Translations under genes and position numbers: made by a program
Source: a bacterium
GTDB taxonomy: Bacteria > Patescibacteriota > CPR2 > UBA1875 > CAIMLA01
Direction: 5' to 3'
NCBI GenBank assembly: GCA_037129835.1
Contig: JBAXUE010000001.1
Span: forward strand, 26,085-90,084
DNA length: 64,000 bases
Shown here: one piece after another, positions 25,786-31,965 of the stretch
Position numbering within the stretch: the first letter of the stretch is position 1
Layout of the letters: every line of letters begins with the position of its first letter
Notes under the pieces: generated by a model
Database searches by the model: none
The model's input: only the letters and a program-made list of their open reading frames with translations
Told to the model about the DNA's origin: nothing

Positions 25786-26427
25786 TTATACAAGCCCTTG
25801 ATTATCGGTAATAATACCCGATACATTCCTCATATTTTGTATTAATGCGAGATCTTCTTTGGTTTTAACATCCCAAATAATTATTTCTTTATCAAATATA
25901 GAAAATAGTAGAGATAATTTATTTAATAAACTATATTTAGGTACAAACAACTCGAAAAAAGGCAGATATAGTAGATTTTTGATAAATCTCTCAGATAACA
26001 ATAAACCTACTTTGATAGAGGGGAATTCCTTATTAATCTTCTTTAATGATTTTGGATAGAAAGAAGAAATAATATATCCTTCGTTTTTAATATATTTTTG
26101 AGTTAAATTAATGACTTCAGCTTCGTATCCAACCTCTTTTAGCTCAATATCTAACTTTATTTTATGAGCTACGAGCTTAAGAGTATCTTCAAGTGTTGGT
26201 ATGTCTGGGTATAGTTTCTGTAATTCGTTTAGCGTTAAATCGCATAGCTTAGCATTCTCTAATTTTTCATCGTGGAAAACTACTAGAGTGCTATCTTTGA
26301 GCCTTCTTACGTCAAGTTCTATTCCATAAAAGCCAGACTTTATCGCCGTTTCAAAGGCAGCGAGGGAATTTTCGGCTTCTGTTTCATGAGCACCCCGATG
26401 TGCATATTTGTTCATTTGTTTTTCCAA
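25786..26427 (-). CDS. glycerophosphodiester phosphodiesterase (GDPD) family
   Basis: YAHRGAHETEAENSL...ELDVRRLKD...VFHD motifs. Confidence 0.75.
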   Translation of the reverse strand: MEKQMNKYAHRGAHETEAENSLAAFETAIKSGFYGIELDVRRLKDSTLVVFHDEKLENAKLCDLTLNELQKLYPDIPTLEDTLKLVAHKIKLDIELKEVGYEAEVINLTQKYIKNEGYIISSFYPKSLKKINKEFPSIKVGLLLSERFIKNLLYLPFFELFVPKYSLLNKLSLLFSIFDKEIIIWDVKTKEDLALIQNMRNVSGIITDNQGLV

Positions 26428-27176
26428 GAAGTCTCAAAGAAAGCCTTGATTGCAAAGAATACCAAAGTGTCGTCGATGGTAAAGCCATAAGGCTCTTTTT
26501 TGTTGTATTTGATAAAGGTAACATTGTCGTCGTAAATGAATATATCCATATTCCGTGGCATCCCCGGCATATCAACATATTTCTTTTTCCATAGTAGCTT
26601 TGCAAGCACTTTTGGGTCGTGTTTCGTGTCTGTATTGATAATCTCTCTTATCTCGATGTTTTTCGCGATTCTCTCAGGCCGAAATTTTCTCTCTAACCAT
26701 GCCTCGAGGTAAGTGTTTTTGCCTTGCTCTGAAAGGATTAACAGTAGTTCACTGGGATGTTTTTTAAGCATGTCTGTATATAGCTTTTGGACTCCTTCTA
26801 TACCGTAAAGAACGTGTATCCCAGGCCGATCCTTGGCTAGGCTGTAGAGGCTTTTTAGTTCTGGCATGGCATCGTTTAGGTCCTCTCGGTAGGTTTCTAA
26901 AAGTCTTATGTTGTCGGTACATAGCTGAGTGAGTATCTCCGGGTCTTCAGGATTATAGCGAATCTTGTTGTGCCTTGCATCTTTCTTTACGACACCTTTC
27001 TTCTCTAGGTTAGCAAGTATGATGTAAGCATTTTGTCGAGAAACTTTCATTCTCTCGGCTATTTCTGGTGGAGTTAGTTCGCCATTTTCTAGAAGGAGCC
27101 GATAGCACTCAGCCTCGCTTTCGGCTAATCCAGCCATTTCAAAGATATCTTTTTTCATAAAAGTAGCATAGCACAT
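26412..27176 (-). CDS. winged-helix transcriptional regulator (TrmB/MarR-like HTH)
   Basis: N-terminal LAESEAECYRLLLENGELTPPEIAERMKVSRQNAYIILANLEKKGVV. Confidence 0.55.
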   Translation of the reverse strand: MCYATFMKKDIFEMAGLAESEAECYRLLLENGELTPPEIAERMKVSRQNAYIILANLEKKGVVKKDARHNKIRYNPEDPEILTQLCTDNIRLLETYREDLNDAMPELKSLYSLAKDRPGIHVLYGIEGVQKLYTDMLKKHPSELLLILSEQGKNTYLEAWLERKFRPERIAKNIEIREIINTDTKHDPKVLAKLLWKKKYVDMPGMPRNMDIFIYDDNVTFIKYNKKEPYGFTIDDTLVFFAIKAFFETSWKNK

Positions 27177-27258
27177 AGTGGGTTAAAATGTCAACAGTCA
27201 AAGTGACAAACCAGTACATTATACCCTTTTCCCATAAGCTCACCAATCAAATATAATA

Positions 27259-27286
27259 TTGACATAGAGCCAAAAGGGAGTATAAT
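27259..27286 (+). promoter_or_regulatory. near-consensus sigma70 promoter (TTGACA-16-TATAAT) reading into the GC-rich island
   Basis: Seen directly. Followed by imperfect palindromes and a GGGCGG/CCGCCC hairpin before the first island gene. Confidence 0.5.
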
Positions 27287-27462
27287 ACATCACTGTAATA
27301 TCTGTCATAGGCAAATGTTACATACCTTGACAATAGAATAATCAAATAGGTGGTACCTACTGCCGACGGGTCGAACGAATTCATCGATCCATCGGTGGTA
27401 GGTAAGGGGCCTACACTAAAACAGAAGGGCGGGGGACCGCCCAGACAACGAAGGGAGTGGCA

Positions 27463-27837
27463 ATGAAAACCACTCTGTACGTAATCGCCGCGTTCGTCGC
27501 GGTGACAGTTCTGATAGTCGTCCTCATGATGTGGACGACCGGCTTGGAGCTCTTTGGGCTCCAGCTGGGAAAGCACGTGACCAACGCGGAAACGCAGGTC
27601 ATGAGGCAGACCCAGCAGTACAGAACCACCCAGGAGACCAAGTTGGCCGACTGGATGGCGTCGTACGATGACGCCGAGAAGCAGATCGCACTCGTAAAGG
27701 ACGATCCCGAGGCTGTCGCCACTCTCCGTGCCAATCAGGCCGGAATTGTGCGTCAGATGAAGGTATTCGTTTCTAGCGGGCAGATCGCGAAGGAGAACGT
27801 GCCGACAGACGTCCAGGAGTTCCTAGCGTCCCACTAG
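27463..27837 (+). CDS. N-terminally membrane-anchored protein (island gene 1)
   Basis: SD gaagggag 5 nt before the ATG. One TM segment then a polar domain. GC about 55%. Confidence 0.45.
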   Translation: MKTTLYVIAAFVAVTVLIVVLMMWTTGLELFGLQLGKHVTNAETQVMRQTQQYRTTQETKLADWMASYDDAEKQIALVKDDPEAVATLRANQAGIVRQMKVFVSSGQIAKENVPTDVQEFLASH

Positions 27838-27856
27838 TTCCGAAGGAGGAACAAAC

Positions 27857-28459
27857 ATGAAGCGTTTCATTACGCTTGCAATCGTTGTTATGCTGGCGCT
27901 TTCGGCTCTTGCTCTCACCGGTTGTGACGAGCAGGTTGACAATTCGTCCGCCACCACCAAGGAGGCGGCGATAGTCAACTCTCAGGATTCGGTCTATGCC
28001 AAGGGGCAGCCGATTCCGAGGTTCGACTACTCGATTCCGAGAGATCTCTTCACACAGTTCTACAAGTTCCAGACTCAGGAGGGCATCAACACTTACAGTG
28101 TGGTGTCTGACATCAACGGCAACGTGTACTATGAGGGCCCCACGATGGGGTACCCTATTCCGTACAACAGCCAGTTGACCAACCCGGAGAAGACCGAGGT
28201 CCATGAGGGCAACTACAATGGCGGAAACGTCACGTTGCCCCAGAGTGAACCGAACGGTCTCTACACTTCGCCGACAACGAACGCCACAATAGTGATGTTC
28301 ATCGATCCGGCGACCGGTAAGCTGATGCCTGTCTACACTGAGCTCAATGTGACGTGCTTCCCCTTTACGGTGAAGAAAACGGCTACAACGAGCACAGTGT
28401 ACCAGAAGAGCGGGTCTCCGACCGCGCTCCTTGCCCCCAAGGGCAAGACGACCAAGTAG
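27857..28459 (+). CDS. lipoprotein (lipobox LALTGC)
   Basis: MKRFITLAIVVMLALSALALTGCDEQ. SD gaaggagg. Confidence 0.55.
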   Translation: MKRFITLAIVVMLALSALALTGCDEQVDNSSATTKEAAIVNSQDSVYAKGQPIPRFDYSIPRDLFTQFYKFQTQEGINTYSVVSDINGNVYYEGPTMGYPIPYNSQLTNPEKTEVHEGNYNGGNVTLPQSEPNGLYTSPTTNATIVMFIDPATGKLMPVYTELNVTCFPFTVKKTATTSTVYQKSGSPTALLAPKGKTTK

Positions 28460-28636
28460 TTCCCCTATAGGGTAAGACCGTAAGGTCGAACCCTACCACC
28501 ACCATGGGGCTCGGTGCATCATTTGCGCCGGGCCTCAGTTCCTTATTATGTATCTTTGTAGATAGGAGGACACCTACCTCTCCTCCTATCCGCACGGATG
28601 CGGAAAACAAAAAACGATCCCCAGAAAGGGGGCACC

Positions 28637-28780
28637 ATGTTCTGGTTTATCCTGAGCTTGGCCGCTGCAGTATTGTGCGGTTGGACTGGCTATAAGGGTA
28701 AGCTCGCGTATAATTTGTTACTCTCTGGAGCTAACTTTTTTTTCGCGGGCTACCAGCTGGCAGTATTGTTGGCTCGTTAA
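28637..28780 (+). CDS. small hydrophobic peptide (about 47 aa), cassette A
   Basis: MFWFILSLAAAVLCGW...GYQLAVLLAR. SD aaggggg. Preceded by the CCGCACGGATGCGG hairpin. Confidence 0.35.
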   Translation: MFWFILSLAAAVLCGWTGYKGKLAYNLLLSGANFFFAGYQLAVLLAR

Positions 28781-29163
28781 CTGACACCGATTGAGGCCAA
28801 AATAGCCTCAGAAACGGAGGGCCAAATTGCCCTAGTACGGGTCCTATCCGCTCGGACCAAAAAATATAGCGGGTAATGTATCCGATGCATTGAGGTGGTT
28901 TATATCGGAATCGATTTATTAAACCACTAAGGCCACCCTTGAGGTGCGTCTGCTTCGGCAGAGAGTGATACTCCCTCATCGACACAGAGATATGACTACT
29001 AACCCACAAGGTTAGTCTCTGAGAAGAAAAGTCGGGGGTGCGTTTGAGTGATGAGCTCAACCACCCCATTCCTATTATCTATTCGGATTATAGAACAACT
29101 TGTTTTATAACCCGCACGGATGCGGGAACAGACAAAAACACCAAAACCTCGGAGGGAGGTAGT

Positions 29164-29325
29164 ATGTTTAGTCTGCACATGGCTATGATCATGGTTGCTC
29201 TGACTGTTTATCAGTTCAGGAGTGCCATGAAAAGTGGTCGTACCTGGGATTGGTTCTGGGCAGTCTGGAATGCCTTTCTTGTGGGGGTTAACCTCATGTT
29301 GGGTATTTACCAGCTGACCAGGTAG
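29164..29325 (+). CDS. small hydrophobic peptide (about 53 aa), cassette B (paralog of A)
   Basis: MFSLHMAMIMVALTV...GIYQLTR. SD ggagggagg. Preceded by CCCGCACGGATGCGGG and followed by the 62-nt repeat. Confidence 0.35.
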   Translation: MFSLHMAMIMVALTVYQFRSAMKSGRTWDWFWAVWNAFLVGVNLMLGIYQLTR

Positions 29326-29338
29326 CCAAACCTGGTAC

Positions 29339-29400
29339 CCGCCTGTCACTGGGCGGTAGTGAAAGTAGTCGCTGGCTGATGTGGCTACAAAGAATACAGT
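29339..29400 (+). repeat. about 62-nt direct repeat copy 1 (CCGCC-tgtcactg-GGCGG hairpin plus conserved tail)
   Basis: About 90% identical to 29642-29703, including a perfect 27-mer atgtggctacaaagaatacagtgaaaa. Confidence 0.6.
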
Positions 29401-29441
29401 GAAAATGCAAATGTACCTTCATTCACCATTAGGAGGTGGAA

Positions 29442-29636
29442 ATGTACCAAGATAAGAACAACGAGGACATTGATATCACGGCTGAGATAATCAGATTCGT
29501 GGTCTCACTGGGACTCTCGTGGGGTCTTATCTGGGGCGTAGGGCGTATTTTCGGGATTGATTTCTCGTCAATTGCCTACGCGGTCTCGGTAGGTACCCTG
29601 GTAGGGATTACCTACAGCCGTTTACGCCGGAGATAA
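29442..29636 (+). CDS. small membrane peptide (about 64 aa)
   Basis: SD aggaggtgg. Followed immediately by repeat copy 2. Confidence 0.35.
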   Translation: MYQDKNNEDIDITAEIIRFVVSLGLSWGLIWGVGRIFGIDFSSIAYAVSVGTLVGITYSRLRRR

Positions 29637-29641
29637 TTCTC

Positions 29642-29703
29642 CCCGCCTGTCACTGGGCGGTATCGAAAGTAGTTGCTAGCTAATGTGGCTACAAAGAATA
29701 CAG
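29642..29703 (+). repeat. about 62-nt direct repeat copy 2
   Basis: See copy 1. Confidence 0.6.
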
Positions 29704-29877
29704 TGAAAAAGCACATAGCCTGACTTCCTGCTTGATTAATCTTGCAGGGAGTTGGGTTGTTCCATTCTCAATTGCGATTAGTAAGCTGAATATATCTTAT
29801 CTGATATAGACAGCTTACTGGCTGTAAAGTCAGTACCATACCGCCCCAGCGGAAAGCTATCCTCAGTAATGAGAAGA

Positions 29878-29932
29878 GTGAATAGTGAAATATGAAGGCG
29901 ACTAAAAATCGTATTCATATTTCACTATTCAC
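29878..29932. repeat. 19-bp perfect inverted repeat gtgaatagtgaaatatgaa / ttcatatttcactattcac with 17-nt spacer
   Basis: Seen directly. Exact reverse-complement arms. Confidence 0.7.
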
Positions 29933-30351
29933 AATGGGGCCCCACACTACAAGGGGAGAGGGGGGATCCTAACAGAAGGAGTCGCTAGCCAAATAGTCTA
30001 GTATCCGACTCTAGAAGTTAGGGCGCAACCAAGTGTAGTCGTCGTTAGCAGTATTGCGACGTAAAATATTCTTCTGCAAATGCCCCCGACGGGGCACAAG
30101 CGGTTTTTACACCACCGCTTAATCAAAAAGTGTAGCGTGGTACGCTACCACGATAAATACATGCTAAGCCCAGCGTTCCTGATTTGGGGGCGCTTGGCCT
30201 TTCCTTGTCACCAGCAAAGCGTTTCCATATATTGTTCGAGATTTGTCGAGAACTACAGTTCATGAATAAATAAGAAACTTTATAAGGGGATACCTTGCTG
30301 CTAACAAGCAGAAGGAAAGCAGGCCAAAATAGCCTGTGATTACGATTCACC

Positions 30352-30591
30352 ATGGAGAGGTGGTGTAGGGAGATGGAACGACTTAGGGATCAGATCTTGA
30401 TCGTGATGATAGGAGTGTATTTCCTCATTGTGATCACTCTGATCGCTAGCGCGGCCGTATTTGTAGCCCAGCTGATGCTGGGGGCAGGTATCTCGATCTT
30501 CTTGATCGTACCGGCCTGTATTTTGACCGGCCTCATGGCGACGGTAATTTTCGTCGCCCTGGTGGTCCTGGTTGATCATATCCACAGTTAG
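30352..30591 (+). CDS. small 2-TM membrane protein
   Basis: Hydrophobic, 79 aa. The long antisense ORF 30340..30951 was rejected. Confidence 0.35.
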   Translation: MERWCREMERLRDQILIVMIGVYFLIVITLIASAAVFVAQLMLGAGISIFLIVPACILTGLMATVIFVALVVLVDHIHS

Positions 30592-30636
30592 GACAGTGGT
30601 CAACCACACGATCAACCTCTGGAAGGAGGTGAACAA

Positions 30637-30819
30637 ATGCCGCTTTGGTTCCATATTGGGGGGGTCATTCTCCTCGAGTTGGCGATCATCGGTATCCCGA
30701 GCATGTTGTTTGGGATGTCGATGGCGCAGGGAAATCGCAATGAACAGATCCTCATTGGATCTCTCGTCGTGATTGGGGCGCTTCTGTCCCCGTTTGTTTT
30801 TGCCATTATGATGGCTTAG
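30637..30819 (+). CDS. small 2-TM membrane protein
   Basis: SD aaggaggtg 5 nt upstream. 60 aa. Confidence 0.4.
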   Translation: MPLWFHIGGVILLELAIIGIPSMLFGMSMAQGNRNEQILIGSLVVIGALLSPFVFAIMMA

Positions 30820-31245
30820 GCGAACGCGCCCTGAGGGCTGGTAACTCCCAGCCATTGGCAACAAAGGAGAGGCATGGACAATAGTCCTAGTTCTCTCAGA
30901 GTGCCAGCGAAACAACGCTGGAATCGTGAGGTGTGCACTCATGAGAAACAAATAATTATTGAGGGCCCAAGTACCGTTGTGAAACGGGATGCGGGCCTTT
31001 TCGCTTATTAGAAGTATAGAGTATTTTGGATAGTATTGTTTTGAAGATCAAATTTAATGAAACCCGATACCTACAACGTAGTTATGGTTCAACTTGTTGA
31101 AGAAATTCAAAATAGAACAGGCTAAAGTTGATACCTCGCCAGCGTTATCACAAGTTTTTTTGTGCTTGAATACATTGACAAATAAGTATAAATACGTTAA
31201 AATAAATAATTGTTTTGGGTATAAAAATCTGGATATTCTCTAGAT

Positions 31246-31965
31246 TTGTGTTCCCAATACAGGGAACAAGTATGCCTCGGAAGGAGGCTGATAGTTGTGT
31301 TTGGTGACACAAACTTGGTAGTCGACGGAACTCTTGTACTGGTAGTCATCTTTAGCTTGGTCGCCATAGCTTTTTCACACCGACGTAGTTATCTTTTGAA
31401 GGCAGAAGTTACCAGGTTGGCAACGGAGGTCTTGCGGATAGGGGCAGACAGAGACAATCATCAAGAGCTGTCTTTGATCGATCCACTAACCGAGGTGGCA
31501 AACAGAAGAGCGATTGGCCTGTATTTGCAGTATGACATGGAGCGCATGTCACGCTATCCTGGGGAATATTCGCTCATGTTTGTAGATATTGATCGCTTCA
31601 AAGCAGTCAATGATACTCGTGGGCATGCTCTCGGGGATGAGATCCTTCTGGCAGTCGCCAAGTCTCTCGAGCTCACCTTTCGCGAAAGTGATACGGTGGG
31701 GCGTTACGGCGGCGATGAATTTGTTGTATTGCTGCCAAATGCAGATCTGTTCGCTTCTAAGGCAAGAGCTGAAGACGCACTAAAAGCAGTTCGCGACATC
31801 GGCGAGGTTTATGACCTCGATATATCCCTGTCTATAGGCATAGTGACTGTGATAGGTGGTCAAGAGATTACTCTCAAAGCACTGTTAGACGCTGCAGACA
31901 AGGGCCTATATTGTGCCAAGAACAAAGGAGGCAACTGCTGGTCGAGAGGATTTGTAGAACTCTAA
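31246..31965 (+). CDS. GGDEF-domain diguanylate cyclase with N-terminal TM segment
   Basis: RYGGDEFVVLL, DPLTEVANRRA, DIDRFKAVND. The likely true start is a GTG/TTG near 31294 after SD ggaagg. Confidence 0.8.
   Translation: MCSQYREQVCLGRRLIVVFGDTNLVVDGTLVLVVIFSLVAIAFSHRRSYLLKAEVTRLATEVLRIGADRDNHQELSLIDPLTEVANRRAIGLYLQYDMERMSRYPGEYSLMFVDIDRFKAVNDTRGHALGDEILLAVAKSLELTFRESDTVGRYGGDEFVVLLPNADLFASKARAEDALKAVRDIGEVYDLDISLSIGIVTVIGGQEITLKALLDAADKGLYCAKNKGGNCWSRGFVEL

Follow-up and report, generated by a model that had tools for sequence, protein, structure and literature searches.

Why should two genes for small hydrophobic peptides be preceded by one and the same hairpin, and why should the second of them and the gene downstream of it each be trailed, a few nucleotides past the stop codon, by one and the same structured repeat? 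This question is raised by a stretch of 64,000 nucleotides (nt), below referred to as the window, that covers positions 26,085 to 90,084 of contig JBAXUE010000001.1 (assembly GCA_037129835.1) of an uncultivated low-GC bacterium of the lineage Patescibacteriota, CPR2, represented by a metagenome-assembled genome (locus tags WCP14_). The peptide genes are called pep1 and pep2 here and the repeat is called R. A first reading of the same DNA (the original prediction) had noted both elements and had considered cassette- or moron-like units. The answer that we propose, with a probability of about 0.45 and thus tentatively, is that the elements are cis-acting modules of the untranslated regions (UTRs) of messenger RNAs (mRNAs), which double as homology linkers for the shuffling of gene cassettes, in the way that promoter-early stem-loops (PeSLs) do in phages. 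The modules are conserved joints between variable slots. Moreover, they form structures that are specific for the + strand and that are maintained by pair-preserving changes.

The repeats and the small genes lie inside an islet of ~3.8 kb, all genes of which are on the + strand. Its order and the genes that matter most for the argument are as follows.

Islet from left to right, + strand: a promoter, a gene for a protein of 124 amino acids (aa), a 200-aa lipoprotein gene, pep1, a 380-nt non-coding linker, pep2
Islet continued, + strand: R1, a 64-aa gene, R2, a 636-nt non-coding stretch, two further small membrane-protein genes
28637-28780, + strand: pep1, 47 aa, two hydrophobic segments; no R behind it
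29164-29325, + strand: pep2, 53 aa, two hydrophobic segments; stop codon TAG at 29323
29442-29636, + strand: 64-aa membrane-protein gene, the cargo between R1 and R2; stop codon TAA at 29634

A direct repeat of about 62 nt with a perfect 27-mer had been reported behind pep2 and behind the 64-aa gene. The repeat is indeed present and proved to be longer: the two copies of R span 75 nt (29338-29412 versus 29642-29716) and are 91% identical, with the 27-mer ATGTGGCTACAAAGAATACAGTGAAAA at 29379-29405 and 29683-29709. No chance match to R was obtained in 100 shuffles, and a covariance model built from eight distinct copies, with which the window was scanned with filters off, assigned 107 and 104 bits to the two copies and 10 bits to the next best match. 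Each copy begins 5-12 nt past a stop codon. Directly 5' of every R copy there is in addition a gene-specific hairpin, denoted H0, that has the stop codon in or at its loop. The parts of R and the various H0 hairpins are listed below.

29338-29412, + strand: R1, first copy of the 3' repeat, behind pep2
29339-29356, + strand: hairpin H1 of R1, CCGCCT-GTCACT-GGGCGG
29365-29388, + strand: hairpin H2 of R1, GTAGTCGC-N8-GTGGCTAC, 8 base pairs (bp) including G-U pairs
End of R1, + strand: A-rich tail AAAGAATACAGTGAAAA, of which the segment 29398-29402 could pair with the H1 loop
29642-29716, + strand: R2, second copy, behind the 64-aa gene, with H1 at 29643-29660 and H2 at 29669-29692
29317-29336, + strand: H0 of pep2, ACCAGGT-AGCCAA-ACCTGGT; its 5' arm and its loop meet at the stop codon TAG
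29629-29642, + strand: H0 of the 64-aa gene, GGAGA-TAAT-TCTCC, with TAA in the loop
Strain contig L030: H0 of a 70-aa gene, UGGGC-UAA-GCCCA
Strain contig L007: H0 of the pep2 allele, GTTCAAG-TAGCTGT-CTTGGAC, other in sequence than that of pep2 in the window, with the stem kept

The fold of R is strand-specific, with -22 and -21 kcal/mol on the + strand versus -12 and -13.5 kcal/mol on the - strand, on which the G-U pairs would become A-C mismatches. Among the eight distinct copies 99.3% of the stem cells pair; the substitutions within stems are all pair-preserving (C-G to U-G, U-G to U-A) and most substitutions are found in loops and linkers. For pep2, the 64-aa gene and the 70-aa gene, which are not related to one another, the stop codon is thus enclosed by H0 stems that are themselves unrelated in sequence, and the H0 of pep2 is kept in strain contig L053 with a deletion in the loop and a G-U pair. 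For comparison, a stem of at least 5 bp resembling H0 at the stop codon was found for 5 of the 81 long open reading frames (ORFs) in the window, and these stems mostly consist of A and T only.

The possibility that R is a terminator, which had been raised for it, does not hold. R is not an intrinsic terminator, because it has no U-tract (H1 is followed by UAGUGAAAG and H2 by AAAGAAUACAG, and a terminator scan does not report R) and because a separate terminator-like stem lies within a few nt of R in three of the four contexts. Moreover, R1 is located inside the pep2 to 64-aa gene pair. The stem behind R2 likely represents the end of the transcription unit that runs from pep2 to the 64-aa gene:

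29715-29760, + strand: 17-bp terminator-like stem with G-U pairs, then GTTGTTCCATTCTC; behind R2 in every strain

Some other readings of R were tried and discarded. Ribozymes were brought to mind by the H2 loop with its CUGAUG-like string, by a GAAA linker and by the loop-tail pairing. However, the topology differs by eye from that of pistol, twister and hammerhead, no Rfam ribozyme model matches, and the CUGAUG string is not conserved, reading CUAAUG in R2. Stimulation of readthrough or frameshifting by R was dropped as well: the two genes are not in the same frame with respect to R, and any extended products would be short and without relation to each other.

The 5' element was confirmed as originally described. 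The hairpin sequence CCGCACGGATGCGG is found exactly twice, at 28590-28603 and 29112-29125, even if up to two mismatches are allowed over the full 64 kb, where 0.09 matches are expected by chance. Behind each copy come an A-rich tract, a G-rich Shine-Dalgarno sequence (SD) and the ATG of pep1 or pep2. The two 5' modules align over about 100 nt with 77% column identity and are thus diverged copies. They share the same fold (z = -2.4 and -3.8), which comprises a hairpin A, a hairpin B, an A-rich spacer and an SD hairpin. Hairpin A has 10 bp and is unlike in sequence between the modules while its structure is kept. It abuts the conserved hairpin B (consensus CCGCA-CRGA-UGCGG), the stems of which are invariant across the copies compared, and which is followed by an A-rich single strand of ~20 nt and then by the SD hairpin and the AUG. 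The sequence TTCCT(T)ATTAT is found upstream of each module, after a terminator-like stem, and this order of terminator stem and TATTAT motif is repeated at 29034-29078.

28505-28537, + strand: terminator-like stem behind the lipoprotein gene, from a terminator scan; opens 5' module 1
28544-28549, + strand: -10-like TATTAT, within the TTCCTTATTAT that follows this stem, from a relaxed promoter scan; tentative, with a weak -35
28561-28590, + strand: hairpin A1, GATAGGAGGA-N10-TCCTCCTATC, variable
28590-28603, + strand: hairpin B1, CCGCA-CGGA-TGCGG, conserved
28604-28636, + strand: A-rich spacer; after it and upstream of the pep1 start codon ATG the SD hairpin CCCC-AGAAA-GGGGG (28619-28632)
29073-29163, + strand: 5' module 2 as a whole, z = -3.8
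29073-29078, + strand: -10-like TATTAT of module 2, a tentative promoter
29088-29110, + strand: hairpin A2
29111-29126, + strand: hairpin B2, CCCGCACGGATGCGGG
29146-29160, + strand: SD hairpin of pep2, ACCTC-GGAGG-GAGGT, after the A-rich spacer
29424-29438, + strand: SD hairpin of the 64-aa gene, CACC-ATTAGGA-GGTG

What the modules have to do with each other became apparent from a comparison with contigs of co-occurring strains (L006/L054, L030/L055, L007/L018 and L033/L053). Between the strains the non-coding linkers are 93-98% identical, while the slots between them have been replaced or have deeply diverged, and because of this difference the modules can be said to act as homology patches for exchange. 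For instance, the pep1-pep2 linker shows 8 differences over 374 nt between the window and L006 (98% identity), whereas the flanking coding sequences have diverged by 25-36% at the aa level, with a synonymous divergence (dS) of 1.63 for pep1 and 0.41 for pep2. The slot between R1 and R2 contains the 64-aa gene in the window, L007 and L053, but in L006, L030, L054 and L055 it is occupied by a terminator-like stem and a leader, together with a 70-aa membrane-protein gene that is unrelated. Similarly, the segment 29840-30075 of the window, which has hairpins and no ORF, is replaced by a gene for Csx3 in L006 and L030. In L053, 316 unrelated nt with a 26-aa ORF have taken the place of pep1 and of the linker's first half; the left breakpoint of this replacement lies directly past hairpin B, and the A1-B1 stretch is kept despite the absence of pep1. 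The first slot of L053 holds a lipoprotein allele that is 31% identical to that of the window. The idea of cassette- or moron-like units thus stands: the same 5' and 3' elements bound different cargo in different strains, the GC content is foreign, and the lipoprotein belongs to a family seen in prophages.

The R copies also recombine with each other. Both copies of L006 share a strain-specific AGA at columns 23-25, a case of concerted evolution, and the second copy of L033 is a chimera of an R2-type 5' end and an R1-type middle. The exchange inside R has occurred at variable points and therefore carries the signature of homologous recombination or gene conversion.

The linkers themselves are highly structured. 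The one between pep1 and pep2 has a minimum free energy (MFE) of -108 kcal/mol, with z = -4.35 on the + strand and z = -2.66 on the - strand, and may be a non-coding RNA in its own right or may serve pep2 as a long leader. Further downstream, the linker hairpins at 30036-30210 are maintained via compensatory changes.

28781-29067, + strand: pep1-pep2 linker, non-coding and structured; no Rfam match
28792-28810, + strand: stem-CAAAATA-stem hairpin within this linker
28816-28835, + strand: GGAGGG followed by TTG-CCC-TAG, within this linker
28839-28875, + strand: candidate hairpin or pseudoknot within this linker
29034-29067, + strand: terminator-like stem that closes this linker

Several details of the linkers may be recorded in their own right. 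Within 28816-28875 the strong SD GGAGGG is separated by 5 nt from a two-codon ORF, TTG CCC TAG, and L053 (~1440-1500) has ATG CCC TAG. In the window the hairpin after this ORF reads GGUCC-UAUCCGCUC-GGACC...AGCGG, and its loop can pair with a segment past the A-run; the counterpart in L053, AUGGUCA-UUUUCUGCUU-UGACCAU...AAGCAG, has the same layout and is otherwise unalignable. A second recurrent leader hairpin, with the loop CAAAAUA, is found at 28792-28810 and 30320-30336 of the window and at ~948-966 and ~1352-1372 of L006. Its stems covary (UGAGGC/GCCUCA, CAGGC/GCCUG, CAGAC/GUCUG, CCCGC/GCG(C)GGG), and in several cassettes it sits 15-30 nt 5' of the SD hairpin. The 636 nt at 29710-30345 contain no credible ORF and about 13 stable hairpins, including a near-perfect one of 24 bp at 29878-29932. 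The MFE of this stretch is -239 kcal/mol, with z = -14.2 on the + strand and z = -7.5 on the - strand. It is about 93-95% conserved in L007, L018 and L053, has no Rfam match, and several of its stems are kept in L030 by compensatory change, e.g. from GCCCC/GGGGC to GCUCC/GGAGC. It could be an array of linkers, a large RNA or a single-strand DNA element.

In the mechanism that we propose, the islet would be a 'hyperplastic' array of lineage-restricted small membrane-protein genes, each surrounded by non-coding modules that can be reused. The 5' module of the mRNA would protect the leader and the 5' end, and its occluded SD would gate the initiation of translation. At the other end, H0, H1 and H2 would form a folded block right behind the terminating ribosome, and the R block would define or protect the 3' end of the upstream cistron and insulate it from the downstream cargo, without intrinsic termination. 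We infer this exact function of R as an RNA. Since the modules are reused, any cassette inserted between them would be expressed, and the modules would in turn supply the homology for the next exchange, which would proceed via ordinary homologous recombination or gene conversion.

The closest known parallel is formed by the PeSLs, mobile regulatory cassettes that T4-type phages have in their hyperplastic regions (Arbiol et al. 2010 PMC2839356; Comeau et al. 2014 PMC4122927). As with PeSLs, conserved composite non-coding motifs of ~75-100 nt (a stem-loop, a promoter-like box and an SD) flank small ORFans, close relatives differ by ORFs inserted, deleted or replaced between the motifs, crossovers are found at variable points within the motifs, and the expression signals travel with the cargo. 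There is, however, no PeSL counterpart to the most conserved element of the islet, R, which is a promoterless 3'-UTR structure behind a stop codon; indeed, no promoter-like site is conserved in both of its copies. The likeness to phage morons is of another kind. Like morons, the islet genes are small accessory genes of foreign composition between terminator-like stems and promoter-like boxes, the lipoprotein family occurs in early regions of prophages, and a distantly related contig, L049, has the two-gene unit inserted alone. In contrast, morons are not defined by conserved flanking repeats, nor are they thought to move via these, and no prophage backbone surrounds the islet among the neighbours examined. 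The locus thus works like PeSL shuffling combined with moron accretion and is not a member of the PeSL family.

With respect to R there is a further parallel in the intercistronic and 3' stabiliser stem-loops and in the repetitive extragenic palindromes and bacterial interspersed mosaic elements (REP/BIME). These are stable hairpins directly after stop codons, inside operons or at their ends, that lack a U-tract and are thought to block 3' exonucleases and to give cistrons differing stability. Protection of the 3' end is also the function that R would have, but REP/BIME occur as hundreds of dispersed copies per genome, whereas R is found at one locus and adds H0, which encloses the stop codon, and a possible pseudoknot. 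The general principle of exchange between linkers, for which the strains give clean evidence, is already known; the fusion of a stop-codon hairpin to a conserved 3' element is unusual.

A number of observations weigh against our proposal. The predicted promoters of the 5' modules are weak, with a TATTAT -10 and a poor -35 (8/12 positions), whereas PeSL promoters match the consensus, and the -10-like box is interrupted by an insertion in one strain. The islet is located on a bacterial chromosome and not in a phage genome, and has two copies per motif, compared with tens per phage genome for the PeSLs. The covariation in R is not significant (133 of 500 shuffles reach the observed score), because the copies all stem from one population. 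A candidate H-type pseudoknot between the H1 loop (UCACU) and the tail (AGUGA) is geometrically feasible and we put it forward as a hypothesis. Its pairing has been kept by a double change in one allele and has been broken in another, while the same double change also agrees with an H1 of 7 bp and a closing stem formed together with the ORF end, a stem that is present at some junctions only. The ends of the transcripts, the use of the promoters and an effect of R on stability or translation are all predictions made from the sequence. Finally, the deep divergence of the slots could reflect long-term balancing selection instead of repeated exchange.

The small hydrophobic peptides recall type I toxin-antitoxin loci (hok/sok, ldr, ibs/sib, txpA/ratA, aapA/isoA), and one may suppose that pep1 and pep2, and perhaps other small membrane proteins of the islet, are toxic and that the 5' and 3' structures, as fold-back or SD-occluding devices and as targets of antisense RNA, silence their mRNAs. 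As in such loci, hydrophobic peptides of fewer than 60 aa (here 47-53 aa with two membrane segments) are encoded in tandem, the SDs are sequestered in hairpins, the leaders are long and structured, the 5' and 3' structure of the mRNA is elaborate, and a highly structured and conserved RNA region separates the genes; in addition, the DNA has been acquired horizontally, the islet being of probable prophage origin, and on the - strand the SD hairpin together with the A-rich tract resembles a short intrinsic terminator for an antisense RNA. Yet there is no credible conserved - strand promoter in or downstream of either peptide gene (28450-29800), and the single weak candidate (29214-29185) is destroyed in the L006/L007 allele. 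Also, R folds poorly on the - strand, no gene for an antisense or trans-acting antitoxin RNA was identified, and the peptides have neither a sequence relation to known toxins nor a match to a known toxin family in Pfam, PADLOC or the function classes of PHROGs. Occlusion of the SD is, moreover, shared by islet genes that do not encode such peptides, namely the lipoprotein and GGDEF genes, and hence is islet-wide. Toxicity is therefore an unlikely explanation of the modules. That the 5' modules and R are without function, left over from a tandem duplication long ago and held alike by gene conversion, with hairpins that are incidental, would fit with the presence of two copies of each element at one locus and none elsewhere in the collections searched, with the evident gene conversion between R1 and R2, and with the possibility that pep1 and pep2 are old paralogues whose upstream regions can still be aligned. 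It does not explain why three genes that are unrelated and have an H0 of their own are all followed by R at 5-12 nt past the stop codon, why the linkers are far more conserved than the adjoining coding sequence, why substitutions avoid the stems or keep the pairing, and why folding is asymmetric between the strands, and it is distinctly unlikely. A recent local tandem duplication, with no further copies anywhere and no conserved structure, would have spoken against the original prediction. Copies are indeed confined to the locus; a simple recent duplication, however, does not agree with the unrelated genes, the persistence among the strains and the structure-preserving changes. Hairpin B could also be a DNA operator at which a dimeric regulator, such as the TrmB/MarR-type protein encoded at 26412-27176, co-represses pep1 and pep2. 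It is a perfect 5-bp inverted repeat, occurs exactly twice, each time close behind and downstream of a peptide gene's -10-like box, and has stems that never vary, so that its structure as RNA is unproven, and a winged-helix regulator gene flanks the islet. The fact that B always abuts hairpin A, of which the sequence differs and the structure is kept, is nevertheless easier to explain at the RNA level, and the regulator gene is host-like in GC content and conserved in strains with differing islet content, which makes such an operator improbable.

The presence of structured repeats behind short genes is reminiscent of integrons too, and R, perhaps together with hairpin B, might be a site for site-specific recombination akin to attC. 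Like integron cassettes, the islet contains short ORFs that are each closely trailed by a conserved structured repeat of 60-140 nt, the repeats are highly similar within the array and the content varies between strains. In line with this, R comes, like attC, directly after the stop codon of each cassette gene, the cargo between its copies is strain-specific, its left edge is sharp, its structure is strand-biased, and other slots have at their 3' ends a recurrent motif, GTRAAAA...GCAMAT. But R lacks the R''/R' core sites: an RYYYAAC-N35-130-GTTRRRY pair does not occur on either strand of 27000-31500, and R1 is without any GTT. Also, R consists of two local hairpins, H1 and H2, and not of one long imperfect palindrome, and there are two copies only. 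A scan of the ORFs on either side, from about 18.1 to 27.2 kb and from 31.2 to 37.6 kb, gave no adjacent intI, no integrase or recombinase and no Phage_integrase match; the flanking genes encode the TrmB-like regulator, GDPD, GGDEF and hypothetical proteins. Leaders and terminator-like stems are part of the cassettes themselves, and the chimeric R and the conversion tracts that end inside R point to homologous exchange. The suggestion of a dedicated recombination site is hence not supported for R, the breakpoints being variable and including gene-conversion chimeras, and an attC-like role of R is highly improbable. Even less credence is given to R being a two-hairpin processive antiterminator like put of phage HK022, to which we presume a likeness and which would let transcription run through the terminator-like stems right behind R, or a small pseudoknotted riboswitch-like sensor. 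The element does have two hairpins in about 65 nt, is present twice, stands immediately upstream of a terminator-like stem in three of the four contexts, and allows the UCACU/AGUGA pseudoknot with one compensatory change; it has no Rfam match even at E <= 5, though, its position is fixed relative to the upstream stop codon and not to a promoter or a downstream gene, and the covariation of the pseudoknot is not significant and its pairing is broken in one copy. A bolder variant combines R and H0 into a termination-coupled RNA device, in which the ribosome at the stop codon in H0 would melt H0 and the 5' arm of H1, so that R refolds and controls the fate of the mRNA, or into a folded single-strand recombination site that is integron-like and yet unrelated to integrases. 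We hold this variant, in either form, to be a long shot, comparable in that respect to the operator.

The elements are specific for this locus and are neither a dispersed repeat nor a widespread RNA family. Neither R nor the 5' module nor the linkers match a covariance model of Rfam 15: only transfer RNAs (tRNAs) passed the gathering scores, and at E <= 5 the region 27000-31500 gave only chance matches of the microRNA type to long hairpins. The search for copies of R beyond this locus came out negative in viral, genome and metagenome contigs alike. The pattern GAAAGTAG-N14-22-CTACAAAGAATA matched twice by chance inside a phage gene in 2.9 million viral contigs, in which an exact 23-mer was unmatched, and ten times in 32 million genome contigs, all of these being single chance matches in unrelated taxa. 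Among 241 million metagenome records there were 24 matches, of which those on 4 contigs are real and all represent this locus (samples Ga0194043/Ga0194044). On all contigs spanning the locus, R is present exactly twice. The covariance model of R found no match in prophage loci that bear homologues of the lipoprotein, and blastn of the islet against phage and plasmid records gave no match. Likewise, homologue searches with pep1, pep2 and the 70-75-aa membrane proteins returned alleles of this population only. The locus-specificity of the elements follows from the single locus of R together with the absence of outside relatives of the small proteins.

Judged from their alleles, pep1 and pep2 are real genes, because the reading frames stay intact between strains, including a 3-nt indel, and because the ratio of nonsynonymous (dN) to synonymous divergence is 0.16-0.48. 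More specifically, pep1 and the L006 allele are 64% identical at the aa level and differ by the in-frame 3-nt indel, with dN 0.27, dS 1.63 and dN/dS of about 0.16. The L006 allele is the sole genuine match among 1.84 billion representatives, which makes pep1 lineage-restricted; a further candidate relative, P0005, was rejected as a spurious repeat protein. For pep2 there are three alleles, all of 53 aa and 75% identical (dS 0.41-0.55, dN 0.15-0.26, dN/dS 0.35-0.48), and three database relatives, all from the same population. In comparison, the 64-aa gene is near-invariant among the strains (dS 0.02). The peptides had been called paralogous. What stands of this is a shared two-transmembrane layout and a C-terminal motif, N..L.G.N....G.YQL, while the homology statistics are weak (7/19 identities in BLASTP with E = 0.006 for a single comparison, and a probability of 7% in hhalign), so that the sequences point only weakly to paralogy. 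Gene callers miss or mis-start several real small genes here: pep1 is uncalled on every contig examined, and pep2 is called as a 93-aa ORF that reads through its own leader.

In the 64-aa protein an acidic N-terminus is followed by a long hydrophobic core and by a C-terminus that is basic (RLRRR), a charge pattern that recalls the coat proteins of filamentous phages; the protein has a faint match to Cap15_TM (E = 0.023). Its gene is missing from the NCBI annotation, and no Zot-like or Rep gene is located near it. The thought that dense hairpins and small coat-like proteins mark the remnant of an inovirus was dropped, as the islet has no Zot-like or Rep gene.

The islet coincides with a GC-rich patch at ~27.25-31.0 kb, the only such patch in the 64-kb window, with a GC content of 0.47-0.52 versus 0.31-0.45 elsewhere (about 0.39). 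It is bordered by two genes, one for a TrmB-like regulator and one at the opposite end for a GGDEF protein, and the segment around it is ordinary chromosome, with dnaK, dnaJ and tRNA genes. In the islet (genes at 27840-31300), the SD is part of a short anti-SD-loop-SD hairpin for 7 of the 8 genes (lipoprotein, pep1, pep2, 64-aa, 72-aa, 60-aa and GGDEF), compared with about 1-3 of the ~50 ORFs outside; these hairpins have a stem of 4-5 bp and a loop of 5-7 nt, e.g. CCUC-N5-GAGG and CACC-N7-GGUG.

26412-27176: TrmB/MarR-type winged-helix regulator gene, adjoining the islet
27259-27286, + strand: sigma-70 promoter with the perfect consensus TTGACA-16-TATAAT, at the left edge of the islet and pointing inward; 98% conserved in L053
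27857-28459, + strand: lipoprotein gene, 200 aa; matches phrog_24725, E = 1e-18

Homologues of the lipoprotein (n = 49) include some in early regions of prophages, beside integrase, ERF, ParB, RtcB and DnaB genes; a tblastn search of viral contigs gave no confirmed relative. The 124-aa protein has an N-terminal hydrophobic segment and weak matches to Rz-like spanins in PHROGs (E = 9e-4). L049, a distant relative that is 75% identical, bears the two-gene module alone within AT-rich DNA, closed by a terminator and a GGGAGGA...TCCTCCC hairpin that resembles A1. Given the GC-rich patch, the match to phrog_24725, the unit in L049 and the islet-wide SD hairpins, the islet has been acquired horizontally and probably derives from a mobile element. 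A backbone of integrase and structural genes was not found in the neighbours examined.

If the proposed role of the modules is correct, linker-mediated modular shuffling, which has so far been documented mainly for PeSLs in T4-type phages, would not be confined to phage genomes. It would then also operate in a chromosomal islet of an uncultivated bacterium that has structured UTR modules as fixed joints and small membrane proteins, with or without Csx3, as cargo. The locus furthermore offers a compact natural test case, with three unrelated genes that have their own stop-codon hairpins and the same 3' element, and could be used to study the effect of a structured block behind the terminating ribosome on the stability or translation of mRNA.

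As to the cargo, Csx3 is a cyclic-oligoadenylate ring nuclease, and its presence therefore hints at a role of the islet cargo in defence or anti-defence. The Csx3 cassette (L006 1405-1695, L030 817-1107) encodes a stand-alone protein of 96 aa (PF09620, E = 1e-28; PADLOC Csx3, E = 3e-30) and has its own stem-CAAAAUA-stem leader and SD hairpin. The left part of the islet varies as well: between 27457-28459 of the window and 219-1151 of L053 the pair of 124-aa and lipoprotein genes has been replaced, within flanks that are 93-98% identical, by a pair with the 31% identical lipoprotein and a partner without detectable similarity to the 124-aa protein. To the right of ~31000, L007 (2692-3417, 3658-4293) and L018 have another GGDEF allele and an extra gene for a 241-aa, HExxH-containing zincin-like protein with a weak match to Peptidase_M54.

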